Shown piece by piece: positions 7,409 to 54,097 of a DNA stretch of 64,000 nt. Source of the DNA: an uncultured Candidatus Saccharibacteria bacterium. GTDB lineage: Bacteria > Patescibacteriota > Doudnabacteria > UBA920. The notes beneath the pieces are model-generated. The model made no database searches, was not told the origin of the DNA, and saw only the letters and a program-made list of their open reading frames with translations. Numbering within the stretch: the first letter of the stretch is position 1; each line of letters begins with the position of its first letter. The position numbers and the translations under genes were made by a program. The stretch covers positions 1,033,606 through 1,097,605 of the forward strand of contig CAYYWQ010000001.1 of assembly GCA_964474825.1 (NCBI GenBank). Reading direction: 5' to 3'.

Positions 7409-7409
7409 T

Positions 7410-10267: not shown

Positions 10268-10271
10268 AAAA

Positions 10272-12290: not shown

Positions 12291-12296
12291 AAGGAA

Positions 12297-12335: not shown

Positions 12336-12337
12336 TT

Positions 12338-34183: not shown

Positions 34184-34211
34184 AAGAACCCCTTCTGGGG
34201 TTCTTTTATTT
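34183..34211. terminator. Bidirectional intrinsic terminator (agaacccc-ttct-ggggttct)
   Basis: A perfect hairpin with A/T runs on both sides, between convergent genes. Confidence 0.5.
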
Positions 34212-34778: not shown

Positions 34779-34871
34779 ATTGGTGTTTTAGTCTATGTTT
34801 TAAAGACTTTATGTTTATTAAGTATATAATATTTTTTCTTATTTTGCCATTTCAGTTATAATGTTATTGTT

Positions 34872-36499: not shown

Positions 36500-36511
36500 T
36501 TGTTGTAAATA

Positions 36512-36545
36512 AAAACGCTGATCTTTTGAGATCAGCGTTTTTTAG
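36512..36545. terminator. Bidirectional intrinsic terminator (acgctgatc-ttttga-gatcagcgt + T-run)
   Basis: A perfect 9-bp hairpin between convergent genes. Confidence 0.5.
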
Positions 36546-36555
36546 TATTTATCGA

Positions 36556-38251: not shown

Positions 38252-38288
38252 TATAGCATTTTGTCTTTTTTATAGGTATAATAATTTT

Positions 38289-40601
38289 ATGAATACAGAA
38301 TTTAATCCCATTGAGAAATATGGGCCAACTACTTTACCGGAGTCAAAATCAGAGCATGAACTGCGGGAATCAAAGGCAGAAGTTTTGGAATTAGGGAAAA
38401 GATTTATTCAAGGACGGGATTGGAAAGCACTGGAAGATTTAGTTAGATCTTTGCCGGACAATGATTTTCTTGTCACTCAAACTACTTTGTTACAGGAGTT
38501 AAATGATGGTTTATTTGATGTTCAACTGAAGCCTGGACCTGCCAATAGATATTTTGAAGAAGGGGACGGTTGGGAAACTTTACGCTGCGCCACAGAAATT
38601 ATAAGGAAAATGGGAAATAATCCCAGCTCATCCAAATATTTGCATAAGGTTATGGAGATGGACAGGATTCCTAAGGTTGTTTTAAAAGAAGGGCAAGCTG
38701 CCATTACTAATGATATAAATGCAGGAGCTGATTTAGATATTGATGTTCGTTGGTTTTATTATAGGGCATTGACAGAGGCTTTTTTAAAATTTCCAGACGA
38801 TCGAGCCCTGCTCGCGGTAAAGCAAATTTTAAATAAGATTGACCAGCAGGTACTTGAAAATACCAGACATTATTACTACCCTGAGGGAAAAGATATAACA
38901 GGGAGTTTTGAAGAAACGCCACAGGAGTTGTTTGACTATCAGTTCAAGGCTGCGGAATCTAATATGCCCAGTGACTTAATTGCAGGCATATCCGCCGGTG
39001 ATATGGCAGTTGGCACTAAGTCTTTTATAATAAAAAAATTAGGGGGAGCCAAACAGCCGGAATCACTTCCTATGTTTTTAGAAGTGATAAAGCTCGAAGG
39101 CTCAGATGCCCCAATATATTTTCATCCTATATTGGAGGCTCTTAGGCAATTGGACCAAAATTTGGTGGCGGACAAGCTCTTAAATTTGGTTAAGAGCGGA
39201 AACCCATTTGAAAAAAGAAGCGCATTATGGCTGCTATATAGGTTGGAAATTGGACAAGTTGGGGTTTCTGAAGAAGGCGTACATTATTTGCATAAAGTTT
39301 ATGACGTGGGAAACTATAATAATCCTAATTATTATGTACAACGCTTAACTTCCGGTGGGCAGGTTGGTATTTTTTCCCAAGAGGGAAAATTTGAGAAATA
39401 TTTTAATTTGGAGGGATTGGGCAGTGAAGAACAGCGCATTAGAGCTAAATTGTTGGACATTACCTACGCTACTTTGTTTGGGCATCACGCTAAGGAGAAG
39501 CCGGAAGAACGCAAACAAAGAACAAAGTTATTAGAGGAGTTTCAGTTAAAATATTTTGAATTTTTACAACACGATTTTTTCAATGATCTTCCAGTAAAGT
39601 TTTCTGATTTAACTTTTCCGGAACAAGGGCAGTTTTTAAAATTTTATTCTGACTCTGAGGAGTCAGAAAGAGCGAGACTGAAAGATTATTGTAAGAAGTT
39701 TGGGCTAACTGGGTTTCGTTCATTAATGTCTTTGGATTATGATGGGGGTGTCGCCGCCAAGCTTTTAGACATGGCCGAAAGTTTGCCTCAGTCACGAATG
39801 CAGATGATTTTAGATAAATATGTGGCAATAGTTTCCGCAGCTGATACCGCGGAAATGGCACTTTGGGAAAACTTACCTCAATCCGCAAATGCTTCTCCAG
39901 ATTTAAAAGAACGGGTAAGAGAATTTATTATGGAAAAAGGTAGTAGATTTTTAAGGCATTTAGGGCTGGACGAATCTGAGGCATTTTCACACAAAGACAC
40001 AATCATGTATTTAAGTGGAATTCGTACAGAAGTAATGATTTATGCCGCTTTATTTAAAGAACTTTCTAAAATTAACAAACTTTCTATAACTGACATTAAA
40101 GACGCTAGGTTTGACATCGTCCCAGCTAAATTACTTTCTGAAGATGATAAAAAACAGATGTTGGAAATTTTTGCAAATAATAGAGACGAGAGCTATCCTT
40201 TAAAGTTGAGAGAAGCGACGTTAAGAAGTTTTGAGCAAACTTTACAAGCAGAAGGGCCGGTTTTTAGAGTGCTAAAGTACAAAGGAAGTATTGTGTCGTT
40301 TTTCCACGCTCAACCACAAGGAGAGGATGCTATTTATGTTGGATCTTTGAATTTGAGTCCTGACGCCCAAGACAGCTCTATTGCAGTTAGTATGGTAGTT
40401 GCGGCTTTGGAACAGGCCGGGACAGAAAAAAATATAACAGCTAAGGTTTGGTCTAAAAATGAAAAACTTTATAAATTTTATAAGCGCTATCTACATTTTC
40501 AAGATGATGGGGTAGAAGAGAATTATGAAGGAACGGGGGAAAATTATTACAAGCTAAAAAAACCAAAGCAGGAAGAATCTACTTTTGCAGTAGCGGCTTA
40601 A
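38289..40601 (+). CDS. Large hypothetical protein
   Basis: A long ORF with coding-like composition. The likely start is MNTEFNPIEK at 38289; the track start at 38232 overlaps the divergent ABC gene. I recognised no motif. Confidence 0.5.
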   Translation: MNTEFNPIEKYGPTTLPESKSEHELRESKAEVLELGKRFIQGRDWKALEDLVRSLPDNDFLVTQTTLLQELNDGLFDVQLKPGPANRYFEEGDGWETLRCATEIIRKMGNNPSSSKYLHKVMEMDRIPKVVLKEGQAAITNDINAGADLDIDVRWFYYRALTEAFLKFPDDRALLAVKQILNKIDQQVLENTRHYYYPEGKDITGSFEETPQELFDYQFKAAESNMPSDLIAGISAGDMAVGTKSFIIKKLGGAKQPESLPMFLEVIKLEGSDAPIYFHPILEALRQLDQNLVADKLLNLVKSGNPFEKRSALWLLYRLEIGQVGVSEEGVHYLHKVYDVGNYNNPNYYVQRLTSGGQVGIFSQEGKFEKYFNLEGLGSEEQRIRAKLLDITYATLFGHHAKEKPEERKQRTKLLEEFQLKYFEFLQHDFFNDLPVKFSDLTFPEQGQFLKFYSDSEESERARLKDYCKKFGLTGFRSLMSLDYDGGVAAKLLDMAESLPQSRMQMILDKYVAIVSAADTAEMALWENLPQSANASPDLKERVREFIMEKGSRFLRHLGLDESEAFSHKDTIMYLSGIRTEVMIYAALFKELSKINKLSITDIKDARFDIVPAKLLSEDDKKQMLEIFANNRDESYPLKLREATLRSFEQTLQAEGPVFRVLKYKGSIVSFFHAQPQGEDAIYVGSLNLSPDAQDSSIAVSMVVAALEQAGTEKNITAKVWSKNEKLYKFYKRYLHFQDDGVEENYEGTGENYYKLKKPKQEESTFAVAA

Positions 40602-41380
40602 ACAGCTTTTGCATTTTGCCACAGTGCTTCAAATACAGTTTTGTGCATTTTGTAAATTGCAGGGTGTTCTATGGTCATACTGACAATTTTTCCGGCTTCC
40701 ATGCTAATGTAAGAAATCTTGCCGTCGTAAATGTACATTATGGTGGAAAAGGCCGCGGGCGCCGGTATAACGCGAACCTGGGTAACGTTGGGGTTAAAAG
40801 TTTTAGCGTGCTGCCGCACAAAAGCGGAGTCCACCATAATAATTTTTTTCTTTATGCCTTTAGTTGTCCGCGCTTCCGTAAAGTTTTTGTTAAGTTCAGG
40901 AAATTGTTTATTTAGCGCCTCGCTGTCTATGTAAGAATAAATTTCCGTAGCTGAAGTTAAAGAATCCTCCACGACCTGTTGTGCTCCGTCCAATCCTTCG
41001 AAAAATTTAATTGTTGGTTTGGTTGCCGCGAGTTGATAAAGACTTCTAAGTCCCGGTAAGGTTTTGCCCAATTCTTCCTCCGCCGTTGTAATGGCGGATT
41101 TTTGTTTAGCTAAAAGAAGTTCCAGGTGCTCTGGATGTTTGGCTATAAATTTGGTGGTGGTTTTTGGCAAGTCTTGTTTTTCTACTAATCCTTTGGCTAC
41201 TAAGCTGTCCAGGTGGTAGTAAGCGTTGCCGCGCTTTAACTTGGTGTGGAATAAAATTGGCTTCATGCTTTGCGGACCCAAGTTTAAAAGCAGCTCGTAG
41301 ATTTGGGCTTCGTTTTTGTTGAGGCCTAGTTTTTCCAGGAGGGGGATATAAGGGGATTGTTGTATTTGATTATTATCCAT
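40598..41380 (-). CDS. TrmB-family transcriptional regulator (N-terminal wHTH)
   Basis: The N-terminus KNEAQIYELLLNLGPQSMKPILFHTKLKRGNAYYHLDSLVAKGLVEK matches the TrmB winged-helix pattern. Confidence 0.55.
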   Translation of the reverse strand: MDNNQIQQSPYIPLLEKLGLNKNEAQIYELLLNLGPQSMKPILFHTKLKRGNAYYHLDSLVAKGLVEKQDLPKTTTKFIAKHPEHLELLLAKQKSAITTAEEELGKTLPGLRSLYQLAATKPTIKFFEGLDGAQQVVEDSLTSATEIYSYIDSEALNKQFPELNKNFTEARTTKGIKKKIIMVDSAFVRQHAKTFNPNVTQVRVIPAPAAFSTIMYIYDGKISYISMEAGKIVSMTIEHPAIYKMHKTVFEALWQNAKAV

Positions 41381-41500
41381 ATACCCTTATTATGCGCCCT
41401 TTTTAGAATTTTGTCAAGTTAAAACTGACATTTTACTATTAATTTAAGCCATTTATTTAAAAGAAATATAGAGTTTATATATTATTACATCAGTATATTA

Positions 41501-41529
41501 TTGACATTTTGTCAAATTTAGACTACAAT
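41501..41529 (+). promoter_or_regulatory. Near-consensus sigma70 promoter (TTGACA-N17-TACAAT) pointing into the GC-rich island
   Basis: TTGACA is at 41501-41506, the spacer is 17 nt, and TACAAT is at 41524-41529. Confidence 0.5.
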
Positions 41530-41536
41530 GCGTAGT

Positions 41537-43240
41537 TAACATAAAAACAGCAAAAAGCACCTTTTACAATATATATGACTTTCTGAGGAGAGAGTCGGCA
41601 ATAGGCGCCGAAAAGCCTGGTAAATTAAGTCTTTTTGTCGCAATAAGCGGCTAATTGGTTATCTCTCCCAAAGAAATAGCTTGTTAGCCGCTTTTTTGGT
41701 AGAAGGGGATTTGGAGAAGAATACACCACATATTTCTTCTTCAAGTCTCTCTCTATAAAGAGGAGAGAGCCTGCGCTTAAAAAGAGCAGGTAAAAAATTC
41801 TTTTAAAACCATTTGTCTTGCTCAAAGGTTGGAGTAAGGATTAGAAACCCTAAAACAACCCCGCTCCATGCTCAGCATGGAGAAAGTAGACTTTAGCTAG
41901 AGTAGGTAAGTTACAGTGTTAAGCGCTTCGGCTTACAGGAAGCCGCGGCCCTGACCGCTTACCTATGGACCTAGCAATGAGTGCACCCTTCATAACCCAA
42001 AAGGTTGTGAAGGGAACAGTCATTGTTATAAGTAGAATATAGAATCTAGAAGATAGAATTTAGGAAATAGGTGCGTGCGGAAATTTTTATCGCCTGTGGT
42101 AAATATTTCTGCCCTCGCTACTACAGGAGTAGTGAGGTAGCACCTTAAAATTTTCAAATAAGATTTTAATTTTTGCTTAAGTTCGTCTTAAGCGTATTAG
42201 ATTTTGTCGGCAGCGTTGAGCAGCAAAGCTATGTCTTTGCTTTTTTAAGCTGCCGACAAGCCATGCATCTTTTTGGCGCATGGCAGCAGAAAAGGAGGCG
42301 GATATCGTGGAATACCCGCCGGGCAAGCAATAAAATTGCCGGGGTACAGCGTGAACCCTATCCCAAATTCGCTCGACAACTTCTGTGGCCTTTGCAGAAG
42401 ATCGTATTGATAAGGCAACCGGCAAGCAATTCTTGCCAAAGGAGGGTGGAAATGAAAACTCCACCTGGAAATAGGGGTAACTGGAAGAGGCCCAAAAAAC
42501 CAGCAACCGGAAACCTAGGGTATTAGTTGTCCCTAAGTGGAAGGTAAAAACCCGTCGCCGACAACTAAATGTGCTGCAGGAGTAAGGTAAGACTAGTAGT
42601 TATATTAGTAGGCTTGGATAAGGGCGTATGATCCTGGACTGAGTTAAAAGTATAATGAAGTGCTTATCTGAAACTGCACACATGGCAAGGAAGAGTCCTC
42701 CCTCCAGGAGGTGAGCGAGCTTGGGATAGTATCTCCGGGCCGCCTGCCTGGAGAAACTGCTCTATACCCCGAGGATCCGATGCTTCATGATTTGGGGTGA
42801 ACTTCCAGACGCCCAGGCACTTTGTTTTAGGAGGTGTGTTATGTTGAAACTTCCGTTTTAGCCCGGTCTCTGGATCCGGGCGAAGCCTGCCGCAAGGTAG
42901 GAAAACCAGCAACCAACCTATAGCAACAGATAGCTATGGGAAGGTTTACCCTAGGCCGTGTCTGTATGTTTTGTTAAGTAGTTTACGGAAAGGCGGATGA
43001 TCTGGAACGTAAACGAAAGGCGAGGCATGGTCGTGTGGTCCCGTGCGGCAACGGGACAAGGAAGAAAGTCTCTCCGCGTCTGTGGAGAGGATGGGCGAGC
43101 TCGGGACACAATTCCGCGGCTCGGCCTGTCCGAGTCCGCGGGAGAATGCCCAGAATCTTTCAGACGCCCGAGCGTTTTTGTTGTAAAAATCAAAACCGCC
43201 CGCGGCGCCGGATGATGCGCCAAGGGCAAAGGAGCTTGTC
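41537..43240 (+). other. About 1.7-kb non-coding, hairpin-dense leader / candidate large structured RNA preceding the Ubl-conjugation operon
   Basis: There is no ORF with credible composition. I saw at least ten perfect 5-10-bp hairpins by eye. Two 26-nt direct repeats lie at 42803-42828 and 43158-43183. G+C rises sharply from about 41830 onward. Confidence 0.3.
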
Positions 43241-44308
43241 ATGGTTGAGGTAAAATGGGGTGCAAATGCGGATCGTCCGTATTGGTTTCCCTTTAGTGAT
43301 CAGATAAAAGAATGGCTCTCTAATAACGAGAGCCTGCCAGACACTTTGTTGTACCTGCGCCCAACGTATAAGGAGGGGCAGCAGGAGCAAGTGGCTGGAC
43401 GTTTGGTTGTTGTGCTGGGTCGTGATGATTGGCCGAGCACAAAAGGGACCCTTGAGGCGGAAGGGAGCTTGAAGATTGACTTCATTCCGCAGGGTAATTT
43501 TCTTCGGATTTGGGGGCTACCAAATTGTCCCGACCGGAGAGACGGCGAGGAGGTGGTGAGGATTCTGAGTCGTCTGTTGCCCGAGGTTGCAAAGACTGAC
43601 CCACAAAAAAAACTTGCAATAATGGCAATGGTCTCTGAGGCCTATGTTAAAGAGTGCTCGAAGAGATTTGAAAAAACCCTTGAAGGAACCCGCAAGGCGA
43701 TCAAAGACGGTAACGCAGCCGTGGCCAAGCTCCAAGTGGAGCTCGTGAAAAAGATTCGCGAGACCCGAGGGGCTGAGCGCAAGCTTGAGCAAATGGAGTC
43801 CTCGCGCGAAGCGCAGACCGAAGGATACGCGCAGGAGTTTAATAAACTCCTGCAGGTCCCTAAAGTCCGTAGGGTGGAGGCAAAGGAGGGCAAAGTGATA
43901 GTTTACACCGACGTTCTTTTTTGTACGGATCCCCGGACGGGGATATGTCACGAGATTGGCGCGTTCAGGATTGAACTAGTTGCGGATATGGGGATCCCGT
44001 ACTGGTTTAACTTAACCCGTTCCGTTGACGGGTACAACAATAGAATGCAGGCACCACATATTTACTCGAACGGGCAGGCCTGTCTGGGTAACGCCGCGGA
44101 AATCTTCCCGGAACTCATAGGTAACTATGAGTTTGCGGCCGCAGCCATGGTGGCTATCCAGTTCGTGGAGTCGGTGAACACCGACGACACGGCTGGAAAA
44201 CACATTGACAAGTGGCCGGTGGCGAAGGAGCAACCGGTCAAAATCGCAACCGCAACAAAGGTGGCAAATTTAGTGCCGCCACAACCGTCTTGGAGGAGCA
44301 ATGGCTGA
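43241..44308 (+). CDS. E2-like (UBC-fold) ubiquitin-conjugating enzyme homolog with a roughly 200-aa N-terminal coiled-coil extension
   Basis: The C-terminal segment IPYWFNLTRSVDGYNNRMQAPHIYSNGQACLGNAAEIFPEL parallels the E2 core YPF.PP...F.T.IyHPNI..nG.ICLdiL, with the catalytic Cys in the xCL position. An SD (aaggag) precedes the ATG. Its stop overlaps the next gene. Confidence 0.5.
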   Translation: MVEVKWGANADRPYWFPFSDQIKEWLSNNESLPDTLLYLRPTYKEGQQEQVAGRLVVVLGRDDWPSTKGTLEAEGSLKIDFIPQGNFLRIWGLPNCPDRRDGEEVVRILSRLLPEVAKTDPQKKLAIMAMVSEAYVKECSKRFEKTLEGTRKAIKDGNAAVAKLQVELVKKIRETRGAERKLEQMESSREAQTEGYAQEFNKLLQVPKVRRVEAKEGKVIVYTDVLFCTDPRTGICHEIGAFRIELVADMGIPYWFNLTRSVDGYNNRMQAPHIYSNGQACLGNAAEIFPELIGNYEFAAAAMVAIQFVESVNTDDTAGKHIDKWPVAKEQPVKIATATKVANLVPPQPSWRSNG

Positions 44309-45035
44309 AAAGTTAAGGCGTGAGTGGGGCGGCGCCAAGAAGTTTGCGCCTCATGAATTTTCCTCGCGAGTAGAACTCGCGGGAGGCTTGCCTCGGGTTC
44401 TCGTGACCCGCGATGCGTACGAAGATATGTACTGCATCGTTGACGCGGTCGACAAAGAGGTAGGTTGGCTTGGCGCTGTCCAGCGTCTCGGAAATGATTT
44501 TCTGATCACGGAGGTTTTCCTCTTTGACCAGGAGACGCACGCGACAACGTGTGAGATCACGCCCGACGGCATGGCGGAGTTCGCCATGCAGCTCATGTCG
44601 TCCCGACCGGACGGCATGGAAGTAGCCAACTCAATCCGCTTCTGGGGGCACAGTCACGTGAATATGGGGACCAGCCCTTCGGGGCAGGACGAGACCCAAT
44701 TGCGTGAGCTGGCGGCTTCGTGTGGTGATTTTTTCGTTCGGGGCATTTTGAATAAGTCCGGACGGATGGAGTGGACCATCGTACTTGCTTCTGTTGGCGT
44801 CGTAATCCGCGACGCCGCGTGGGAGCTTTACGAACCCGCCGCCGATGCCCGCCGCCGACAGCGGTGGGAGGCGGAAATCGCAACTAAAGTCCGGGAAAAG
44901 ACCTACCCGCAACCGACCTTCGGGTCGGAACGTCGGTGGTCATCAACGATTATTCCCGGACCGGTCGCCTCCGCGGTCCCGCTCTCCAAGCGGGCACAGC
45001 GGCGGCTAGAGAAAGCGGGCAAAAATGGCCATTGA
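44301..45035 (+). CDS. JAB/JAMM (MPN+) metalloprotease-family protein, a putative Ubl-processing/deconjugating peptidase
   Basis: It has a complete JAMM motif: E (LITEVF) ... HSHVNMGTSPSGQD, which is HxHx7Sx2D. It overlaps both neighbours, indicating translational coupling. Confidence 0.65.
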   Translation: MAEKLRREWGGAKKFAPHEFSSRVELAGGLPRVLVTRDAYEDMYCIVDAVDKEVGWLGAVQRLGNDFLITEVFLFDQETHATTCEITPDGMAEFAMQLMSSRPDGMEVANSIRFWGHSHVNMGTSPSGQDETQLRELAASCGDFFVRGILNKSGRMEWTIVLASVGVVIRDAAWELYEPAADARRRQRWEAEIATKVREKTYPQPTFGSERRWSSTIIPGPVASAVPLSKRAQRRLEKAGKNGH

Positions 45036-45732
45036 TCCGCTTCGGCATCTAAGCGTCTTTTCGCCGCATGCCTTTGGGCAGCGGCGGGTAGACGTAATTG
45101 GCTGCGGGGCCACAGGGTCCCGTATTGTGCTTTCTTTGGCGAAGCTCGGCGTGGAGAACATTCACGTGTGGGACTTCGACGTCGTCGAAGAGCACAACAT
45201 TCCGAACCAAGCGTTCTGGCAGGAAATGCACGTCGTGCACGATTCTGCCAAACCGAAGCTGGCGAAGGTCTCGGCCATGGCCGAGATCGTCGAGATCGCC
45301 ACGGGGACCAAAATCACCGTCCATCAGGAGAAGGTGGACGGCACCCAAAGCTTGGGTGAAGTAGTTTTTCTTCTCACCGACACCATGTTTTCGAGAAAGG
45401 AGATTTGGGAAGGAGCCTTGAAGTTCAAGCTCCGGACCGAACTCTTAATTGAGACCCGCATGGGTGCGGACTCGGGCCGGGTGTATAGCCTGGACCCGAA
45501 TAAGCTCGGCCAAATCAAAGCATACGAGGAGACTCTGTGTTCTGACGAAGAGGCCGAGGTTAGCGCTTGCGGCGCAAGTGTGTCGGTGGGGTCAACCGCG
45601 GAAGTGATTTCCGGACTCGCGGTCTGGCAAATGATTCGATGGTTTTCCATTGAGCAGGGAGGCGACGATGAGCTCGACAACGAGATCATTTTTGGCCTCC
45701 GCCCAATGCTGACCATCAGCAGGAAGTTTTGA
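45025..45732 (+). CDS. ThiF/MoeB-type E1-like activating enzyme
   Basis: It has the Rossmann/ATP motif VDVIGCGATGSRIVLSLAKLGVENIHVWDFDVVEEHNIPNQ, with Gly-rich GxGxxG and acidic DxD, and a downstream Cys-containing block ACGASVSVGSTAEVISGLAVW, which is the E1 catalytic-Cys region. Confidence 0.7.
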   Translation: MAIDPLRHLSVFSPHAFGQRRVDVIGCGATGSRIVLSLAKLGVENIHVWDFDVVEEHNIPNQAFWQEMHVVHDSAKPKLAKVSAMAEIVEIATGTKITVHQEKVDGTQSLGEVVFLLTDTMFSRKEIWEGALKFKLRTELLIETRMGADSGRVYSLDPNKLGQIKAYEETLCSDEEAEVSACGASVSVGSTAEVISGLAVWQMIRWFSIEQGGDDELDNEIIFGLRPMLTISRKF

Positions 45733-45733
45733 T

Positions 45734-46051
45734 ATGGGCTGGCTGGCGGGCCGTAACGAGATAATTCAACTTCGTCTCCAACCACCAAAGCCAACGGCCT
45801 ATGTTAATTTTGGTTCAGGTATTGAGTTCACTGCCGACTTCATTGTTGGTATGACACTTCGCAACCTGATCCAGTTTTTGCAGCAGAACTGTAGCTATCG
45901 TTCTATTCACGGCGATGAAATCCCGTGGTTGCATGACTTCCTGCGAACCGGCGACCTTAAGAATTTCCCGGCGGATTTGGACTATGTTATCCAGCCGGGT
46001 GACAAAATTGTTCTGGACTTAACGAAGTTGTTGAGTCCGGTAAGTAAGTAA
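45734..46051 (+). CDS. Small beta-grasp (ubiquitin-like/ThiS-like) protein without a terminal Gly-Gly
   Basis: It has the C-terminal beta-grasp-like DYVIQPGDKIVLDL pattern. Its start is 1 nt after the E1 stop. It ends ...LLSPVSK, with no GG. Confidence 0.4.
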   Translation: MGWLAGRNEIIQLRLQPPKPTAYVNFGSGIEFTADFIVGMTLRNLIQFLQQNCSYRSIHGDEIPWLHDFLRTGDLKNFPADLDYVIQPGDKIVLDLTKLLSPVSK

Positions 46052-46183
46052 ATGTAGTATAGAGGCCGGCATTGCCGCCCGTCGAATGTAGACGTTAAAA
46101 AATATGGGTCCCAAAGGGATTAAATTTAAAACCCATCCGCAGTTTGTAGAGCATTGGCAAACAGCGAAGACAGGAGTAAAACA

Positions 46184-46966
46184 ATGCGGAGTTTCATTAA
46201 CGTCAGAATCGGCCGGCTCCCCGGTCGGATTTCGGAAATTGTGCTTAATGGCGACCGCACGGTCGCTACCGCGTTGATGACCGCCGGCCTGGACAGCGCT
46301 GGCTACGATATCCGGGTGCAGGGTGCACCCGCGAGCATGACAACCGGACTCAACGAGGGGGACATTGTCCTCCTCGTGAAGAAGATCAAGGGGAACGGCG
46401 GGATTGAGGGCGCAACCTTCGTTCACGTCGGCCGCGTCCCCGGACCCGGTCTTGTCCAGTTTGCACTGGATGAGCCCACGGTCTTCATGGCTTTGTCTGC
46501 CGCTGGTCTCAATCTGGGGCCGGATGAGGTGGTTTACCGCAACGACCAGCTTTCTTCCATCGGGGAACCGGTGGAAGACGGCGACAAGATCGTCGTCCGG
46601 CATCCGATGCCGGCGATGGTCGCGGCTTCGCCGGAATTGCCGTCCGGCTTGCACCAGACTGCGCCGGTAGTTTCTGCCACGTTCGATTTCTCGGCCGTGG
46701 TCGGCACCGACCCGGCCCAGCTCTGCTCCAGCGCGGAACGGCTGACCCGCGAAGCGGAGGAGCTCGAGGCGGGAGCTCGCGCCGCGCTCGCCAGCGCGGC
46801 CGAGAAGAAGGTTGCGGCCTCGGCCCATTGGGCCAAAGCCGCGGCTATCGAGACCGCCAACGAGGCGTTGGCAAATGCCAGCGCCCAGCTCGAAACCCTT
46901 GGGGTTATTCGCCCCAAGGGCGAAGGACGGTGGACTGATATCCGCCGCCTCTTCGGCCTCTCGTAG
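46184..46966 (+). CDS. Tandem beta-grasp (multi-ubiquitin-like) protein with an internal KGNGG and a C-terminal Ala-rich coiled coil
   Basis: Module 1 is INVRIGRLPGRISEIVLNGDRTVATALMTAGL...EGDIVLLVKKIKGNGG, with a diglycine at the module end. Module 2 is ...GPDEVVYRNDQLSSIGEPVEDGDKIVVRHP. The SD (aggag) favours the ATG at 46184 over the track start at 46154. Confidence 0.5.
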   Translation: MRSFINVRIGRLPGRISEIVLNGDRTVATALMTAGLDSAGYDIRVQGAPASMTTGLNEGDIVLLVKKIKGNGGIEGATFVHVGRVPGPGLVQFALDEPTVFMALSAAGLNLGPDEVVYRNDQLSSIGEPVEDGDKIVVRHPMPAMVAASPELPSGLHQTAPVVSATFDFSAVVGTDPAQLCSSAERLTREAEELEAGARAALASAAEKKVAASAHWAKAAAIETANEALANASAQLETLGVIRPKGEGRWTDIRRLFGLS

Positions 46967-47376
46967 TAGACGAGGTGCGCGAAATTTTGTCACCGTCTTA
47001 GCAACAGATGGCGAGACAAGCAGGGGCAGACCTGCAAACATCAAATTAATAAAAAGGAAAATAAAAAAAGGTAAAAAAATAAATCTTCCCGCAAGGGTTG
47101 CCTGAAACCTTAAAGCACCACAGGCGTAAAAGCACGGGTACACTGATCGTAATGTCAACGAGTTTAATAAAATAGGTCTCTGCCACAAGGCGGAGGCCAT
47201 CGAGTCAAGAAGTAAATGGCAGGGTGATGCCCACCTGCCAGCCACGAAGTTGTGGCAAACAAAACGGGACAATGCACCAAGATTGGGGAGAGGTAGACTG
47301 CACACCTACCTTTCCTCTTTCCAATTTAGCGCACAAAATTTTTGTGAGCTGGATTGGGAGGTGAAGTATTAAAAAA

Positions 47377-47622
47377 TTACCAGAACTTCTTTGCCAGTTC
47401 TGCCAGCGCAAGCTGGAGGGCTGGGAAGATTACCGGCAGACGCACGAATGCGTCTGCGGAGCTAAGTACTTTGTCGTCTCGCATGACGACTTGTGTATGG
47501 CTCCGAGTTTGGCCCACGATGCCTTTGGTATTAAGGAAGAAGGCGCGGTCGAAGTCAGGGTCATCGAGAAGTTCGATGTCCTGACCGATGAAGGCCAGGT
47601 TCCGGAAGATGGGGATTGGCAA
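47377..47622 (-). CDS. Small hypothetical protein on the island
   Basis: An 81-aa ORF with an SD (aggaaggg) 9 nt upstream of the ATG on the - strand. It has no recognisable motif. Confidence 0.25.
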   Translation of the reverse strand: MPIPIFRNLAFIGQDIELLDDPDFDRAFFLNTKGIVGQTRSHTQVVMRDDKVLSSADAFVRLPVIFPALQLALAELAKKFW

Positions 47623-47699
47623 GACATGGTCTTTGCCCTTCCTAAAAAATAAAAAGCCCGGTTGGTGGACCGGTTAAATAAAACCGCTAAGCACTCAAA

Positions 47700-47752
47700 T
47701 TTGGGACGAGTGAGTTAACAGTCATTCGTCCCAAATTTATTTATTATTTATC
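47700..47752 (+). terminator. Intrinsic terminator (ttgggacga-N14-tcgtcccaa + T-rich tail)
   Basis: A 9-bp perfect stem at about 47703-47736, followed by tttatttattatttatc. It probably ends the Ubl operon transcript. Confidence 0.4.
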
Positions 47753-47918
47753 TTCAATCACCTGCCGGAATGACGGCTTAAGAGTAGTTGGGGAGCTGTA
47801 TGGTTTAGCCAATTAATTTTGGTACAAATCTCTCTCCTCAAGCGGCTCCTTAATGCTTTTAAACTTTTCATTTCGGCAGTTGGGTGGAGGAAAAATAAAA
47901 AAAACAAAGGTGAACAAA

Positions 47919-48500
47919 ATGTTTAGTTGGTTGTTAAGATGGTTGAACTTGGACAAACCAACGGCCACAGGTGCGGCCGTTGAACAAGTGACGACAGAAG
48001 TTGCGGTCGTCGAAAAACCAAAAACGTCAGAGCCCCCGCCTGCCCCGCGGGAGGAGGCGGACCGGGACACGCATGTACTTAATTCCCAGTATCGCAGCAT
48101 TCGGCCGTTTGTGCCGGCGGCTGAAGTTCCCAAGGCCGTTGTGGCGGCGGATCTTGTGGAGTTTGAGGCTATTCCCGCTGGAGACGGGAAAACGGCGCCC
48201 GGGGATTGCCGACCGACGCGATTCCCCAATGGGGCGATCCTTGAGGTTGTCCAGAAAAGGGAGGGGGTAGTAATGGTGCGGTGCTATGTGCCGTACCACT
48301 ACACCAACAGGAGGTGGTGGCGGCCAGAAAAATTGATGGGTCAAATTTTTTTGATGCCAACAGAGAGATTTTGTTGGCTGGCCCAGCAGAAGTACCCGCC
48401 GGGCCACTGGGCTTTGCGGGACTACCGGGACGAGGTGGCCCGTCGGCAAGCTCAGGGCTTGCTGGATTACATCAACCTGCCCCCGCCTGGGGGCAAATAA
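47919..48500 (+). CDS. Hypothetical protein on the island
   Basis: The start MFSWLLRWL is preceded by an SD (aaggtg). The track start at 47853 has no SD. It is Pro/Ala-rich N-terminally, and I could not identify a domain. Confidence 0.4.
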   Translation: MFSWLLRWLNLDKPTATGAAVEQVTTEVAVVEKPKTSEPPPAPREEADRDTHVLNSQYRSIRPFVPAAEVPKAVVAADLVEFEAIPAGDGKTAPGDCRPTRFPNGAILEVVQKREGVVMVRCYVPYHYTNRRWWRPEKLMGQIFLMPTERFCWLAQQKYPPGHWALRDYRDEVARRQAQGLLDYINLPPPGGK

Positions 48501-48517
48501 ACGAAGCATTCAGTTTT

Positions 48518-48565
48518 GGCCGAAAGCACGCACTTTCGCTTTCGGCCACTTCTTTCAGATTACGA
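48518..48565 (+). repeat. Copy 1 of a roughly 48-nt direct repeat (GC hairpin ggccgaaagc/gctttcggcc + ctttcagattacga), followed by a TTGACA promoter-like site at 48657
   Basis: It is more than 90 percent identical to 50052-50099. Both copies are followed about 80-100 nt later by ctgaaag and a TTGACA -35-like hexamer. Confidence 0.5.
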
Positions 48566-48789
48566 CTCATGTCGCGGTCTGAAAGTTGTCGAGGTTATAG
48601 TTTGGAACATCTGCTTTGTGAGCGCCCTTGCTTGGTAGATGTTCCGCATTTTGGCCTTGACAATAACAGTAGTTTGTGATAAATTAAGTAGTTAAAACTT
48701 AATATTTCTCAAGGGCGCATTTTGCGCCCTTTTTTTGTTTGCCTTTTTCTTTTAGCCCGCAGTGATGGCGGGTTGGAAGAAGGAGGAAT

Positions 48790-49104
48790 ATGGATAAGAG
48801 TGTTTTTGGATTTGTGTCCGCCTTTTTGGTGGACTCGGGATACAACTTGGAATGGAAAACCCAGGAAGGGCGGACATTCGAGGTTTCCGGTGACCCCAGG
48901 TTTCCGGAAATGTATTACGAGGTTTTTGATTCGGCCAAAAAGGTGATCCGTAAGCAGGAAGCGGATTTTGCTTTTGAGGCCGCTTCAGGAGATTTTTTTC
49001 TCTTTCTTTTCTCCGGCGAGGAGAAGAAAGGAGAGTCTTTGTCCAGGGAGCAATTTTTGGACCAGGTGCAGAATCGGTTCCCGGCATTTGTCCGGATCCG
49101 ATAG
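48790..49104 (+). CDS. Hypothetical small protein
   Basis: A strong SD (gaaggagg) lies 6 nt upstream of the ATG. The 104-aa protein is acidic. Confidence 0.45.
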   Translation: MDKSVFGFVSAFLVDSGYNLEWKTQEGRTFEVSGDPRFPEMYYEVFDSAKKVIRKQEADFAFEAASGDFFLFLFSGEEKKGESLSREQFLDQVQNRFPAFVRIR

Positions 49105-49142
49105 GCTAAGATGCTGGTACATAATTTAAAGAAGAAAGCAAT

Positions 49143-50027
49143 TTGAGAAAAGAAGGAGAGGTTTTGACTGTGCCGCGAAAAAAAGGGCCGCAGGCTAAAC
49201 AGAAACAGCGGGAGGCCGACGAACGGCGCAAAAAAGGTACGGCCAAACCGGCTAATGAGTCGGCAAGGGCGTATCTTAACAACAAGGAAATGGCGATGCC
49301 GCTCGACAAGCTGCATCAATATCTTCGTGACAAGAAGGGGTTTAATGTTTCCAGGGCGACCGCCTGGCGCGCCAAAAGGACGGGGTATTTTTATCCGCAA
49401 CACGTGCCGACGTTTGGCGCTAAGCGGATTAAATTGACCCTGGATGAGAGGTCTGCTTCGGTGGATTTTTTGGTCAAGCGGTTTGGCTTTACCCGTCAAA
49501 CCGCCCGGGAAGCCAAGCGGCGTGGGTGGTTTACGGTCGACGTGAACACACGCGGCCGTATTAGGATTCCGGCAGACCGTTATGTTCCGCCGGCGGAGCT
49601 CAAACCTGAGCTGGTGGTGGAAAGGGTAGACCTCACTCAGGAGGAGAGGCAGGCTTTTCCGGATTTTTTGGCAAAGCGGTTCGGGATTTCCCGTCGTACC
49701 GCCGCGGTAGCCAAGGAGCGCGGCTGGTTCAAAGTTTTGCCCGCAATGAGGGGGAAGCTGCGAATTCCCAATGACCGCAAAATGCCGAGCATTTTCCCGG
49801 GGAAAAAGGTGGAGCTGACCACCTCGGAAATGCAGACCAGCCTGGATTTCTTGGTTAATCGGTTCGGCATTCACCGCACTACTGCCGCGGTAGCCAAGGA
49901 GCGGGGGTTCTTTATTGTCATGTCGCAACATATGGGCAAGACAAGGATTCCCGTGAATCGAGTGGTGGGCATGGATGAGACGCGGTATTTCCGTCGCGGC
50001 CGGCCCCCAAAGCCTGGAAAAAAATAA
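49143..50027 (+). CDS. Protein with four tandem excisionase/AlpA-type HTH (HTH_17-like) repeats
   Basis: There are four repeats of about 35 aa: FLVKRFGFTRQTAREAKRRGWFTV...GRIRIP, FLAKRFGISRRTAAVAKERGWFKV...GKLRIP, FLVNRFGIHRTTAAVAKERGFFIV...GKTRIP, and a diverged first copy YLRDKKGFNVSRATAWRAKRTGYF. The real start may be the GTG at about 49170, after an SD (aaggagagg). Confidence 0.5.
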   Translation: MRKEGEVLTVPRKKGPQAKQKQREADERRKKGTAKPANESARAYLNNKEMAMPLDKLHQYLRDKKGFNVSRATAWRAKRTGYFYPQHVPTFGAKRIKLTLDERSASVDFLVKRFGFTRQTAREAKRRGWFTVDVNTRGRIRIPADRYVPPAELKPELVVERVDLTQEERQAFPDFLAKRFGISRRTAAVAKERGWFKVLPAMRGKLRIPNDRKMPSIFPGKKVELTTSEMQTSLDFLVNRFGIHRTTAAVAKERGFFIVMSQHMGKTRIPVNRVVGMDETRYFRRGRPPKPGKK

Positions 50028-50051
50028 GGAGGGGGCATGAGACTTGCAGCA

Positions 50052-50099
50052 GGCCGAGAGCACGCACTTTCGCTTTCGGCCATTTCTTTTAGAATACGA
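50052..50099 (+). repeat. Copy 2 of the roughly 48-nt direct repeat, followed by a TTGACA-N16-TATATT promoter (50132-50159)
   Basis: The match to 48518-48565 is seen directly in the sequence. The promoter hexamers are near consensus. Confidence 0.5.
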
Positions 50100-50399
50100 T
50101 AAGTATCGTGACCTGAAAGAAGTTCTAGTACTTGACAAACCCCCAATTCGTGCTATATTAGGTATACACATTGCACGATTTGGGGATGATATGTGCGCTT
50201 CCGATTCACCCGCTTTAGGCGTAAATATCGGATAAAATAATAAAACCTTAGACCGAAAACATTAAGTTTTCGGTAGGGTTAGTTTGTCGCCAGTTTTTAT
50301 TTTAATGGTAAAAAATCTGATAAACTCTTAATTTTAATAATACCTTTTATTTAAGCCATAAAAGGTATATTTTTAGTGTCTCTGCAACTTTCTTTTGTT

Positions 50400-50491
50400 G
50401 TCATCCCGAGCGACTGCTGAGTGCATCCGAAGCAGGAGTCGAGGGATCCCTCCACTCGCCCTCGGATGCACTCGGGCTCGGTCGGGATGAC
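50400..50491. repeat. Roughly 92-bp GC-rich imperfect palindrome centred on GGATCC, immediately upstream of rpoB (MITE/REP-like element or attenuator)
   Basis: The arms gtcatcccga...gagtgcatccga...gaggga and tccctc...tcggatgcactc...tcgggatgac are reverse complements apart from an internal indel. G+C is far above the surrounding AT-rich intergenic DNA. Confidence 0.5.
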
Positions 50492-50550
50492 ATCTGTAAA
50501 AATTTTTAATTTTTGTTTGTCAATTAATCAACTAATTAAAGGATATATAA

Positions 50551-53500
50551 ATGCCCGCCAAAGCATCAAACGTCGCCTTAGCTAAGCCTGAGCGCAAAAT
50601 CGTCCGCAAGTTTTTTACCAAAGACCACGAAACCAAGTTGCTACCCAACCTTATAGAGGTGCAGCTCGACTCTTATAAATGGTTTTTGGAAAAAGGCCTT
50701 AAAGAACTTTTAGGGGAAGTTACTCCTATTAGAGACTTTACTGGCAAGAATTTAGAATTGTTCTTTGGCGATTACTTTTTTGACAAAACCAAGTACGACG
50801 AATTCCTTTCCCGCGAACGCAACACCACTTTTGAAGCTCCTTTGTACGTGAGCGCTAAGCTTATTAACAAAGTTACGGGCAAAACGAAAACTCAAGACGT
50901 TTACTTTGGCGATTTTCCTTTAATGACCCCGCGCGGAACTTTTATAATCAACGGTGTAGAACGCGTTGTAGTTAACCAGCTTATAAAATCCCCGGGTGTA
51001 TTTTTTACTTCGGAAAATGTCCGCGGAAAAGTTTTGTACGGCGCGAAAATTATTCCTAACCGCGGCGCATGGCTGGAACTAGACACTGACAGCAGCGGCG
51101 TTATTGGCGTAAAAATAGACCGCAAACGCAGAATTCCTATTACAGCTTTAATCCGCGTGTTTGGTTTAACTTCTAACGAAGACATTTTAGCCGCTTTTAA
51201 AGATGTAGACACAGACCCGGACGTAAAATACATTCAATCCACTTTAGAAAAAGACGCTTCCACTAACGCAGACGAAGGTTTTAAAGAAGTTTATAAAAGA
51301 ATCCGCCCGGGAGACTTAGCCACAGTAGACAACGCTAAATCCCTCATCAGTGGTATGTTCTTTAACCTAGAAAGATACGATCTTTCCCCGGTTGGCCGCT
51401 ACAAATTTAACCAACGCTTGCATATAGACGAAAGCCGCGACAACGCACTGCTTCTTTTGGAAGATTTGCTCGCGGTTGTTAAAGAAGTTATTCGTTTAAA
51501 CAACACCCAAGAAACTCCGGACGACATTGACCACTTAGCCAACCGCCGCGTGCGCGCCGTGGGTGAATTAATCCAAACTCGCTTCCGCGTAGGTCTTGCT
51601 CGTATGGCCCGTATTGCCAAAGACAGAATGAGCTTGGCGGATTTAGAAAGCGTAACTCCGGCTCAGCTTATTCATGTCCGTCCTATTGTGGCCACTATGC
51701 AGGAATTCTTTTCCTCTTCCCAGTTGTCACAATTTATGGACCAAACAAATCCTTTGGCCGAACTGGAACACAAAAGAAGGCTCAGTGCCATGGGCCCTGG
51801 TGGTCTTAGCCGTGAACGCGCTGGGTTTGAAGTTCGTGACGTGCACCATAGCCATTACGGCAGGCTTTGCCCAATCACCACTCCTGAAGGACCAAACATT
51901 GGTTTGGTTGCCCACTTGGCTACTTATGCCAGAGTAAATGATTTTGGTTTTATTGAAACTCCTTACCGAAAAGTTAAAAAGGTCGCCAAGAACGACGGCA
52001 AAGACGCGGTAGGGGAAATTGCTTCGTTCGATATTAAAGACGAAAAAGGTAATGTTATTGTAGCTGCCGGAGCGGAAATTTCTGCTACCGCTGCCAAAGA
52101 AATTGCCAAGAACGAACAACTTTTGGAAGTTCCGGTTAAAGCCCGTGTTCTGTTTTCCGAAGTAATGTATTTGGATGCTTTTGAAGAAGAAGAGCTTATT
52201 ATTGGTGCGGCCGGTATTGCCTTTGACGAAAAAGGTTACTTTATAGAGCAGCGTGCTTCTGTAAGACTGCACACAGTGCCAAGTATTGCCGCCACTTCCG
52301 AAATAGACTGCATAGACGTGTCCCCAAAACAAATTATTTCCGTAACCACCTCCCTCATTCCATTCTTGGAACACGATGATGCTAACCGTGCGTTAATGGG
52401 CAGCAACATGCAACGTCAGGCCGTGTCCTGCATTAAGCCGGACGCGCCTTTAGTGGGTACTGGTATGGAAGCCAAAGCCGCGCGCGACAGCGGCACGGTT
52501 GTAGTTTCCGAAGAAGACGGGGAAGTTGTTTCTGTAACCGGCGACAAGATTGTAGTTGTTGGCGACAAAGGCAAAAAGAAAGAGTATCACTTATTAAAAT
52601 TTTTACGTACCAACTCAGCCACGGCTGTTAACCAAATCCCTAGAGTAAACAAAGGCCAAAAAGTTAAGAAAGGCGATTTGCTCGCAGACGGCGCCTCCAC
52701 CGAAGACGGAGAATTGGCTTTGGGACAAAACGTTTTAGTGGCTTTCCTTTCCTGGGAAGGTGGTAACTATGAAGATGCTATTTTGGTTTCTGAGCGCGTA
52801 GTTCAGCAGGACCGCTACAGCTCCATTCATATAGATGACTTTAAAATAGACGTGCGCGACACAAAACTCGGGCCCGAACAAGTTACCCGAGACATTCCTA
52901 ATGTTGGTGAAGAAAAGTTAAAAGACTTAGACGAAAACGGAGTCATCCGCATTGGCGCGCAAATTAAATCCGGTGACATTTTAGTCGGTAAAATTACGCC
53001 AAAAGGTGAGACCGATTTAACCGCAGAAGAAAAACTGCTTCGCGTAATTTTTGGTGAAAAATCCAGGGACGTAAAAGACACTTCCCTTACGCTTCCTCAC
53101 GGTGAATACGGAAAAGTTGTTAACATCCGCGAATTTACCAGGCAGGCCGGGGACAAATTACCTTCCGGTGTTATTCGAAGCATTCAGGTTTCTGTTGCTG
53201 TGCTTAGGAAAATCCAGGTAGGGGATAAAATGGCCGGACGCCACGGTAACAAAGGTGTTATTTCAAAAATTATTCCAGTTGAAGACTTGCCATTCATGAA
53301 AGACGGCCGCGCCGTGGACATTGTCTTAAACCCGCTTGGTGTTGTGTCCCGTATGAACCTGGGACAAATTTTGGAAACCCATTTGGGTATGGCCGCTTAT
53401 AAACTCGGCTACCATGTGGCTACTCCCGTTTTAGACGGAGTCACAGAAGGCGAAATTAAATCGGAACTCAATCGTGCCGGCGTGCCGGAAGACGGTAAAG

Positions 53501-54045
53501 TTGTTTTGTACGACGGAAAAACCGGCGAGGCTTTTGACGAAAAAGTTACGGTTGGTGTTATGTACATGTTAAAACTCCACCACTTAGTAGACGACAAAAT
53601 GCATGCCCGCTCAACCGGTCCGTACAGCTTAATTACCCAGCAGCCACTTGGTGGTAAAGCGCAGTTCGGTGGACAACGTTTTGGAGAAATGGAAGTCTGG
53701 GCTTTGGAAGGTTATGGCGCGGCTCACACTTTGCAGGAAATGTTGACCATAAAATCCGACGACGTAGTCGGCAGAAGCAAAACCTACGAAGCTATTGTTA
53801 AAGGCGAACCAATTAAGAAGCCAAACATTCCGGAAAGTTTCCGTGTTTTAGTTAAAGAATTACAAAGTTTAGGATTAGACGTAGAGCTGCTGGGAGCCGA
53901 CGGCAGCATAACTACTGCGGCGCAGGAACAGGAAATAGTAGTGCCGGGCGGCATGCAAATGCCATCCGCTGTCCCTGACCTTTCTCTGTTTGAGGATGAG
54001 CCAAAGAAAGAGAAAAAGTATAAAAAGGAGAAAAAAAGTAAATAG
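50551..54045 (+). CDS. rpoB: DNA-directed RNA polymerase subunit beta
   Basis: It has canonical RpoB blocks (FFGDYFFD..., [61 protein letters not shown]). Confidence 0.97.
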
Positions 54046-54097
54046 CGATAAGGCAATAGTCAATCTAAGAACTTATCACTAATCACTATATACAATT

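Follow-up and report, generated by a model that had tools for sequence, protein, structure and literature searches.

We analyzed a 64,000-nt stretch of a patescibacterial genome (contig CAYYWQ010000001.1 of assembly GCA_964474825.1, positions 1,033,606–1,097,605; hereafter the window), in which a block of GC-rich DNA lies between the gene of a TrmB-family regulator and rpoB. The block carries an operon for a ubiquitin-like (Ubl) protein and its putative conjugation enzymes, with a long gene-free leader in front of the operon and several further genes, hairpins and direct repeats behind it (Table 1). We found that the interval 42,263–50,128 is horizontally acquired, GC-rich DNA in a Doudnabacteria-like genome of the Patescibacteria (Candidate Phyla Radiation, CPR). 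Genomes of CPR bacteria are tiny, and the ways in which these organisms acquire and exchange accessory or immune genes are poorly known. Loci of other genomes and viral contigs used for comparison are designated below by L numbers.

Composition and borders of the GC-rich block

The original prediction, made by eye, regarded the block as foreign, and all three compositional measures agreed with it once they were computed; uniform composition was not seen. With the rest of the window taken as the reference for the host, the G+C content is 0.538 across 42,700–50,050 and 0.427 in the remaining DNA. In 1-kb windows the mean is 0.536 in the block and 0.427 (sd 0.036) outside it, with values of 0.54–0.60 from 43 to 50 kb and of about 0.35–0.49 elsewhere. 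At 300-nt resolution the G+C content exceeds 0.5 from about 42.7 kb and drops below 0.4 by about 50.05–50.35 kb. The G+C content at third codon positions (GC3) is 0.55–0.75 in the eight plus-strand genes of the block, i.e., 3–7 sd above the mean of 30 host genes including rpoB and rpoC (0.424, sd 0.045). For the tetranucleotide composition (strand-symmetrised, 4-kb windows), the correlation with the remaining DNA is r 0.40–0.63 in the block and at least 0.86 elsewhere. Two long antisense open reading frames (ORFs; 46019–47305 and 48915–50171) had been suspected to be spurious. They are indeed spurious, because the codon-phase G+C follows the plus-strand genes of the block and neither ORF has a single domain match.

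Both borders had to be shifted inward from the places first proposed. The non-coding DNA beside the TrmB gene is common to the window and to L005, a metagenome-assembled genome (MAG) of Candidatus Doudnabacteria (palsa_1336), and the homology ends at the hairpin at 42,201–42,262; in another locus, L017, whose TrmB is 79% identical, the promoter and leader are conserved up to about 42,020. Since no homology with relatives extends beyond the hairpin and the preceding DNA is host-like (G+C 0.33–0.42 at 41,381–42,218), the left junction lies at about 42,262 and not at 41.5–41.8 kb. At the right side, the sequence TTGACAAACCC...TATATTAGGTATACACAT at 50,132–50,171 and the leader that follows it are conserved before rpoB in two relatives (L021 and L023). 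Because the rpoB promoter and leader are thus conserved from about 50,131, the island ends at about 50,128 and not at 50,240. This also changes the view of the supposedly duplicated promoter modules: only a 68-nt terminator-like element is duplicated, and the promoter of the second module is the native promoter of rpoB.

Two further observations concern the rpoB leader. It contains a long imperfect hairpin at 50386–50505 (GTCATCCCGAGCGA...TCGGTCGGGATGAC) that is absent from the matching leader of L021. The motif TTTTATTTAAGCCATAAAA at 50345–50363 is found in identical form in L023, where it is located upstream of the promoter.

Table 1. Genes and non-coding features of the region upstream of rpoB, with their positions in the window.
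Feature	Position	Strand	Properties
Host-composition accessory module (789-aa and TrmB genes)	38265–41380		GC3 0.33 and 0.45, host-like
789-aa protein with C-terminal GNAT domain	38232/38289–40601	+	Pfam Acetyltransf_1 4.4e-5
TrmB-family regulator	40598–41380	-	Pfam TrmB 6.5e-12
Divergent promoter region	41381–41545		Palindromes TGTCAAGTTAAAACTGACA and TTGACATTTTGTCAA; columns invariant in the window, L005 and L017
Promoter TTGACA-17-TACAAT	41501–41529	+	Promoter scan, 11/12 matches
Host-side structured non-coding leader	41546–42262	+	No codon periodicity; blocks at 41,930–42,218 near-identical in L005
Leader-end hairpin TTGTCGGCAGC...GCTGCCGACAA	42201–42262		Stem kept in L005, loop longer there
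Cassette-side gene-free leader of the Ubl operon	42263–43240	+	G+C 0.51; no 3-periodicity; folding z-score -5.5
E2-like protein, 355 aa	43241–44308	+	N-terminal domain, 84-residue helix, C-terminal UBC-like domain; motif APHIYSNGQACLG
JAB/JAMM-like peptidase, 244 aa	44301–45035	+	Motif GHSHVNMGTSPSGQD (H-x-H-x7-S-x2-D; HSH), read from the sequence
E1-like adenylyltransferase, ThiF family, 235 aa	45025–45732	+	Pfam ThiF 3.3e-17, 62.9 bits (cut-off 28.1)
Small conserved protein, 105 aa	45734–46051	+	54% identical to a 76-aa gene product at the same position in L012; no family match
Poly-beta-grasp Ubl, 270 aa	46154–46966	+	Two tandem Ubl domains, Ala-rich C-terminal tail
Non-coding element, 60 nt	46978–47040	+	86% identical to L005 1543–1590 (blastn E 2e-8)
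Probable gene, 81 aa	47377–47622	-	Codon-phase G+C of 0.68, 0.34 and 0.66 (positions 1–3) fits the frame
Terminator-like hairpin with T-runs	47697–47738		Perfect stem of 17 bp
215-aa protein	47853–48500	+	GC3 0.62; no family match
68-nt direct repeat, copy A	48518–48585	+	Terminator-like hairpin GGCCGAAAGC...GCTTTCGGCC and spacer; 82% identical to copy B
Promoter-like TTGACA-17-TAAATT, extended TG, then G+C hairpin and T-run	48657–48731	+	5' untranslated region (UTR) of the 104-aa gene
104-aa protein	48790–49104	+	Homolog (36% identical) before the E2-like gene in L024/L025; tblastn 7e-12
294-aa ORFan	49143–50027	+	Three repeats of about 61–66 aa, weak HTH-like signatures
68-nt direct repeat, copy B	50052–50119	+	Last island sequence before the rpoB promoter
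Native rpoB promoter (TTGACAAACCC...TATATT..GGTATACACAT) and leader of about 390 nt	50131–50550	+	Host DNA, conserved in L021/L023; G+C 0.376

A variable slot upstream of rpoB

To place the block in its genomic context, we compared the rpoB neighbourhoods of five relatives whose RpoB proteins are 85–88% identical (L021, L022, L023, L027 and L028). In each of them the upstream genes follow the same order, UvrB, RuvA, FemAB, Mur ligase, ABC2 permease and ABC ATPase, and then rpoB. The ABC_tran/ABC2 operon and rpoBC therefore flank the same interval in 6/6 genomes, and the gap between them measures 246 nt at the least and 12.3 kb at the most. Three relatives have an empty site (L027, 246 nt; L023, 310 nt; L028, 604 nt). 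In L021 the gap of 4.1 kb contains genes for an 849-aa AAA_21 ATPase and an HTH_24 protein and a 142-aa gene. In the window it reaches 12.3 kb and holds the TrmB/GNAT module together with the GC-rich island.

The gap of L022 measures 8.9 kb. Its content, located at 1262–9087 of an 868-kb contig, comprises a PemK toxin, a type V-A CRISPR-Cas system (Cas12a-Cas4-Cas1-Cas2) and an IS3-family transposase, and is more AT-rich than the host (GC3 0.38 vs. 0.56). The Cas12a protein carries REC1, RuvC and NUC domains.

At the left side, homology with the relatives reaches only a few bases past ATTATAGCAT (the -10 element of the divergent ABC promoter) and breaks off near 38,265. The genes of TrmB and of the 789-aa protein are absent from L023, L027 and L028, where the ABC-transporter gene abuts rpoB. 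Since both genes are lacking in these empty-site relatives, the whole interval of about 38,265–50,128 represents a variable slot between two core promoters, of which the GC-rich block forms the right two-thirds only. TrmB had initially been taken as a stable host flank of the island. This has to be abandoned, as TrmB and rpoB are not adjacent in the relatives and ABC_tran precedes rpoB there. Judging from these sequence comparisons, ABC_tran beside rpoB is the ancestral state, and the TrmB and 789-aa genes are themselves accessory despite their host-like composition.

The interval between ABC_tran and rpoB is thus a newly defined hotspot of this lineage, situated on the rpoB promoter. It combines conserved core flanks with variable occupancy and includes occupants of recognised defence types (CRISPR-Cas12a and PemK in L022, the AAA_21 ATPase in L021). 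The distribution of the island is sporadic: besides the three empty sites, other content was found in L021, L022, L005 and L017.

The module of the 789-aa and TrmB genes is present with conserved synteny in L005 (TrmB 74% identical) and L017, and its G+C-normalised tetranucleotide signature correlates with that of the host (r 0.85). Beyond the conserved leader both loci carry GC-rich DNA of other content. In L005 this cargo extends over at least 9 kb (G+C 0.53–0.65); its products, among them a MoxR-type AAA_5 ATPase and a VWA protein, have no relation to those of the window. In L017 it extends over at least 7 kb (G+C 0.48–0.58) and encodes a DEAH/HA2 helicase and several uncharacterised proteins. 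The GC3 of the cargo is 0.69 in L005 and 0.64 in L017, against 0.43 and 0.42, respectively, in the adjacent host genes. In addition, the G+C-normalised tetranucleotide signature of the Ubl cassette of the window correlates better with the cargo of L005 (r 0.83) and L017 (r 0.79) than with its own host (r 0.57).

The intergenic region next to TrmB contains two palindromes, TGTCAAGTTAAAACTGACA and TTGACATTTTGTCAA, at 41408–41431 and 41501–41515, which from their sequence and position are possible candidates for TrmB operators. A palindrome of the form TTTGTC...GACAA is also found 18 nt before an unrelated TrmB gene in L024 (5849–5875). The octamer ATTTTGTC occurs 18 times in the window against 3.7 occurrences expected from shuffles, and four of its copies fall in the TrmB promoter, the leader hairpin and the 60-nt element. 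Both the hairpin pattern TTTGTC-N-GACAA and this octamer were considered as markers of junctions and rejected, being common across the window.

The promoter and the long leader that follows it were originally assigned to the island as a unit. This holds for the cassette-side part (42,263–43,240) but not for the part at 41.5–42.26 kb, which is of host type and is shared with relatives carrying other cargo. The host-side part of the leader is strongly structured, with a folding z-score of -8.4 for 41830–42265 relative to shuffled sequence. At the cassette side, the segment 43,090–43,240, which contains two copies of the motif CGGATGAT, has a conserved counterpart in the 5' UTR of the L024/L025 operon (blastn and alignment). 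Gene-free or gene-poor stretches of 1.5–1.75 kb also precede the E2-like gene in L012, L013 and L024. The leaders of L012 and L013 show no sequence similarity to that of the window; only L024/L025 share its last ~150 nt. No Rfam family was found for the leaders, either at gathering thresholds in the whole window or at E≤1 in 41–51 kb and L005. On sequence grounds, the ~1.7 kb of non-coding DNA at 41546–43240 is a candidate for one or more new structured RNAs.

The ubiquitin-like operon and the modules behind it

The presence of a Ubl operon, proposed from the letters of the DNA, was confirmed: it combines a ThiF-type E1, a protein with ThiS-type beta-grasp repeats, a protein with a JAMM motif and an E2-like protein. 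The predicted structure of the 355-aa protein (pLDDT 86.5) comprises an N-terminal alpha/beta domain, the 84-residue helix and a C-terminal domain. For the model of the latter (pLDDT 89.3) the best Foldseek matches were UbcH5b/c, which are weak (E 0.13–0.27, TM about 0.36). Alignment by hhalign sets the motif APHIYSNGQACLG against YHPNINSNGSICLD of UBE2D2 (APH..G.AC on HPN..G.IC; E 0.05), and Cys281 of this motif is nearly invariant among the homologs. From these models the protein is likely an E2. Homologs were found in 84 cases, all of them unannotated, in 90% clusters; in a library of 1.84 billion proteins the family comprises 2,969 representative clusters at E≤1e-3, again without annotation. 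It thus represents a large unannotated Bil-like group of about 3,000 clusters at 50% identity that occurs in CPR genomes and huge phages; its operons are built like Bil and stand behind long gene-free leaders.

The JAB-like protein gave a sub-threshold match to Pfam Prok-JAB on its motif (E 0.039, 14.3 bits vs. the cut-off of 25) and is 55–72% identical to the products of the correspondingly placed genes in the operons of L012, L013, L024 and L026. The first Ubl domain of the 270-aa protein ends with LLVKKIKGNGG, and the repeats share the ending LLVKKIKGN(GG). Repeat by repeat, this protein is 45–61% identical to a 210-aa three-repeat protein of L012, which itself matches Pfam ThiS at 2e-13 in three stretches; further homologs are found in L024, L026, L013 and L015. 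The L013 gene (12896–14397) encodes at least six tandem beta-grasp repeats.

The operon most closely recalls Bil, in which a Ubl, an E2, a JAB deubiquitinase and an E1 are encoded by separate genes and the type I Ubl has two beta-grasps (PMC11601603). Here too the E2-like, JAB/JAMM-like, ThiF-type E1 and Ubl proteins are products of separate genes, as in Bil types I and II, and the Ubl has at least two beta-grasp domains, as in type I BilA and the Ubl2/Ubl3 forms (PMC11601603). The differences are the additional N-terminal domain and long helix of the E2-like protein, the gene order (E2, JAB, E1, small protein, Ubl), the gene-free structured leaders of 1–1.75 kb that precede the operons, and the C-terminal tail of the window Ubl. 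Moreover, the E2-like, JAB-like and Ubl proteins were not matched by PADLOC, Pfam Prok-E2 did not match the E2-like protein, and PDB sequence searches with the E2-like profile, JAB, E1 and Ubl found no match. The E1 alone was recognised, through weak matches to the PADLOC model for CBASS E1-E2 and to NCBIfam 6A-MBL cap2_3, both far below the family cut-offs. Because models of known systems recognise none of the other three proteins, we call the operon Bil-like and do not assign it to Bil. Type II CBASS (Cap2/Cap3) and Bub (6E/DUF6527) share the E1 and E2 chemistry, and CBASS also has a JAB peptidase. Unlike these systems, the operon has no E2-E1 fusion, CD-NTase or DUF6527 serine protease.

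Several elements follow the operon. Both in the window and in L005, the first GC-rich cassette is immediately followed by the 60-nt element, in the midst of unrelated cargo genes, and its hairpin shows compensatory changes (CCGTC/GATGG vs. CCGTT/AACGG). For the minus-strand 81-aa gene, neither homologs nor a family match were found. The two copies of the 68-nt repeat bracket a two-gene module encoding the 104-aa and 294-aa proteins (48,586–50,051). The 294-aa gene contains DNA repeats at 49437–49531, 49635–49729 and 49818–49912, and its product has sub-threshold matches to HTH_11, HTH_Tnp_4 and the N-terminal part of IS607; in the homolog search its only database match was itself. An 85-aa ORF of L024, considered as a relative of these repeats, proved unrelated and was rejected.

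The components of the island are distributed differently: L026 and L012 have the Ubl core alone, L024 has the 104-aa gene in front of the E2-like gene, and the remaining genes are unique to the window. This points to several acquisition events. By these sequence relations the block is a mosaic, made up of no fewer than three or four cassettes that each have their own distribution. Therefore, the earlier description of a self-contained defence island stands as far as its modular structure is concerned. It does not stand for the block as one unit, and the defence function is suggested by analogy, from the resemblance of the operon to Bil and from the other occupants of the hotspot.

Origin of the island and possible routes of entry

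As a whole, the locus is best explained as a horizontally acquired, layered mosaic in the variable slot between the ABC-transporter genes and rpoBC, a reading to which we assign a probability of about 0.72. An older layer, ameliorated to the host and shared with relatives, would consist of the 789-aa GNAT protein, the TrmB regulator, the divergent promoter and about 0.7 kb of structured leader. In a later layer, different GC-rich cargo would have been installed downstream of this leader in different genomes; in the window it would comprise the Bil-like cassette with its leader of about 1 kb, the minus-strand gene, the 215-aa gene and the module of the 104-aa and 294-aa genes. The TrmB-linked promoter and leader may place such cargo under host control. 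The Ubl cassette itself would work like Bil: the JAB-like peptidase would process the Ubl, the E1 would adenylate its C-terminus, and the E2 would transfer it to a target, plausibly a phage protein.

The cargo may derive from a pool of mobile, GC-rich DNA, probably that of phages or prophages with CPR hosts. The same order of operon genes recurs in L012 (a 147-kb contig), L013, L024/L025 and L026. The GC3 of the cassette is 0.63–0.66 in the window, L024, L012 and L013, with 0.36–0.55 in the flanking or host genes. Since the cassette proteins are only 46–79% identical, this does not reflect one recent transfer. Nor is high G+C intrinsic to the proteins, because the distant copies in the viral contig L015 have the low G+C of that phage. 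The simplest reading would be a GC-rich mobile reservoir that has repeatedly donated to AT-rich CPR genomes, and the constancy of GC3 near 0.65 despite a host GC3 of 0.36–0.55 points to such a distinct pool.

With respect to mobility, ARAGORN detected no tRNA or tmRNA, and no ORF of the region on either strand contains an integrase or transposase domain, in agreement with the original prediction. Neither mobility genes nor a tRNA target with flanking direct repeats, as expected of a typical island, are thus present, and the integrase and structural or packaging genes of a prophage are missing as well. Searches at the borders for direct repeats yielded only AT-rich 15–19-mers (42164/50504 and 41434/50341), which were rejected as att sites, as they lie inside DNA conserved with relatives. 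The cargo could have entered by recombination at the conserved flanks or at hairpin elements, for instance after DNA uptake, or through a recombinase acting in trans, for which the context of the cassette in L013 offers a candidate type. Short conserved elements do occur at the cassette ends (the leader hairpin, the 60-nt element and the 68-nt pair). Homologous recombination has been assumed for the integrase-less hotspots of E. coli and Pseudomonas (PMC10121019), and islands of horizontal gene transfer are reported to be frequent in Patescibacteria (PMC12455944).

The locus as a phenomenon is a variant of these integrase-less defence hotspots, and its cargo is a divergent, unannotated Bil-like system. 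Hotspot #37 of E. coli and the core defence hotspots of P. aeruginosa likewise are fixed, core-flanked sites, either empty or variably filled, in which many occupants have no integrase and the cargo is often related to defence (PMC10121019). In contrast to them, the present slot belongs to an ultra-small bacterium of the CPR and is situated right on the promoter of rpoB. Some of its cargo is tied to a conserved anchor of TrmB regulator, promoter and structured leader, and a common oligonucleotide signature, unlike that of the hosts, marks the GC-rich cargo in three genomes. What goes beyond the ordinary is the regulator/leader anchor common to different cargos, the long structured leaders and the constantly high GC3 of the cassette across hosts. 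The empty, CRISPR-bearing and Ubl-bearing states of the slot make it possible to study mobility without cis-encoded recombinases in CPR bacteria.

Several points weigh against the layered-mosaic explanation. No att-like repeat was found at the outer borders, as the internal 68-nt pair is the single direct repeat of any length, and neither an excised nor an empty-site version of this genome was seen. The loci of L005 and L017 both end within their cargo, so that rpoB on the far side was not seen, and the signature shared by the cargos is suggestive only, because the segments are short (3–9 kb). Sequence searches in PADLOC, Pfam, NCBIfam and PDB link none of the E2-like, JAB-like and Ubl proteins to known Bil proteins. 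Finally, the operon is present in huge phages, with two copies in L015, and could be beneficial to phages rather than defensive.

This last point leads to the view that the Ubl cassette is not immune in nature but is a conjugation system of phage origin or for stress responses, the island being "moron" cargo; such a system might, for example, modify proteins of the virion or host to the benefit of a mobile element. Copies of the operon more distant from that of the window lie in IMG/VR viral contigs of 188 kb (L015) and 395 kb and in a prophage-like region, PADLOC is silent on the three proteins named above, and Bub operons, related to Bil, have been discussed as stress-response systems (PMC11601603). 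The two copies of the E2-like/JAB/E1/Ubl operon in L015 occupy 3258–5712 and 10001–12481. We nevertheless hold a non-immune role to be somewhat unlikely, as the same slot in relatives contains CRISPR-Cas12a, a toxin and an AAA_21 ATPase, and Bil, for which a role against phages is documented, has the same four-part architecture of E1, E2, JAB and Ubl.

A second possibility is that the block is a decayed phage or integrative element which entered by site-specific recombination, e.g., with a large serine recombinase, and later lost the recombinase and structural genes. The homologous cassette of L013 lies in a prophage-like context: a large serine recombinase (Resolvase, Recombinase and Zn_ribbon_recom domains) is encoded ~1.5 kb upstream of it, and N6_N4 DNA methyltransferases and a terminase-like gene are found around it; relatives of the cassette are present in the two viral contigs, the 68-nt repeats bracket a module of the block, and the hotspot of L022 holds an IS3 transposase. 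However, the window contains no recombinase or phage structural gene. Comparison with PHROGs matched the E1 (families without assigned function) and, below threshold, the 294-aa protein, and tblastn against 50,697 phage records and against plasmids found no match. Together with the lack of att-type outer repeats and the different distributions of the parts of the island across genomes, this makes decay of a single element unlikely.

The anchoring of different cargos suggests yet another model for Doudnabacteria, in which TrmB with its promoter and the ~0.7-kb structured leader, up to its terminal hairpin, serves as a docking and expression site. GC-rich cassettes of a common mobile pool, each closed by a short hairpin element, would be exchanged there without a recombinase in cis, and the Ubl cassette with its RNA leader of ~1 kb would represent a very large new Bil-like family. 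This we consider quite improbable; if true, CPR bacteria would possess a new type of cassette system resembling integrons. Similarly improbable is an integron-like, regulator-anchored platform, in which the TrmB-linked promoter and the leader with its end hairpin would be a fixed site of expression and recombination and hairpin-bounded GC-rich cassettes would be swapped by a recombinase encoded elsewhere. The window, L005 and L017 share the regulator, promoter and leader, and their unrelated GC-rich cargo starts within ~250 nt of the same point. The 60-nt hairpin element closes the first cassette in two of these loci and the 68-nt elements close the last two cassettes of the window, and in L024 an unrelated TrmB-family gene (28% identical) stands divergently upstream of the Ubl cassette. 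As in integrons, a fixed divergent gene and promoter are followed by variable promoter-proximal cassettes with hairpin elements at their ends. Yet the divergent gene encodes a TrmB-family helix-turn-helix (HTH) regulator and not a tyrosine recombinase, there is no IntI beside attI and Pc, and no recombinase was found in 38–51 kb or linked to the site. The boundary elements are unlike attC and dissimilar to each other, the cassettes have promoters and leaders of their own, the junction of L017 lies ~200 nt before that of L005, and the arrangement is known from two or three genomes only. Distant TrmB paralogue loci (L006–L011 and L018–L020) have no consistent GC-rich neighbour.

One of these paralogues, in another Patescibacteria MAG (L008, 5500–15000), is flanked by GC-rich blocks (0.54–0.63 vs. 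~0.42) encoding purine-biosynthesis genes, a radical-SAM protein and a Ro60/TROVE protein. It was not counted in support of the TrmB anchor because the arrangement differs.

A mis-join at either border was considered in the original prediction and was not seen. Exact-protein look-up in Logan retrieved three contigs, independent assemblies of two sequencing runs, which are 100% identical to the window: SRR14271365_12123 (33,999–42,957), SRR14271365_27461 (42,939–55,342, from the island through rpoB into rpoC) and SRR14271372_12206 (41,290–48,038, which begins at the TrmB start, spans the leader and ends in the island). Because independent contigs cross each compositional transition at full identity, both transitions are genuine. 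Despite the sharp change in composition and the break of one assembly inside the leader, an assembly or binning chimera of two organisms' DNA can practically be dismissed, given these unbroken contigs, the length of the source contig in NCBI (1.21 Mb) and the relatives in which other GC-rich cargo is arranged in the same way.

The break in the SRR14271365 assembly, at 42,939–42,957, leaves an overlap of 19 nt between its two contigs, and the SRR14271372 assembly crosses this point. It could be caused by strain heterogeneity or by a local assembly problem.

It should be mentioned that the window contains a second, isolated GC-rich gene at 17963–19030 on the plus strand (G+C 0.57, GC3 0.71), between the gene of a PilB/GspE-like ATPase and polA. 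Its product of 355 aa has a hydrophobic N-terminus and no family match. The gene is probably another horizontal acquisition, with a compositional flavour like that of the island.

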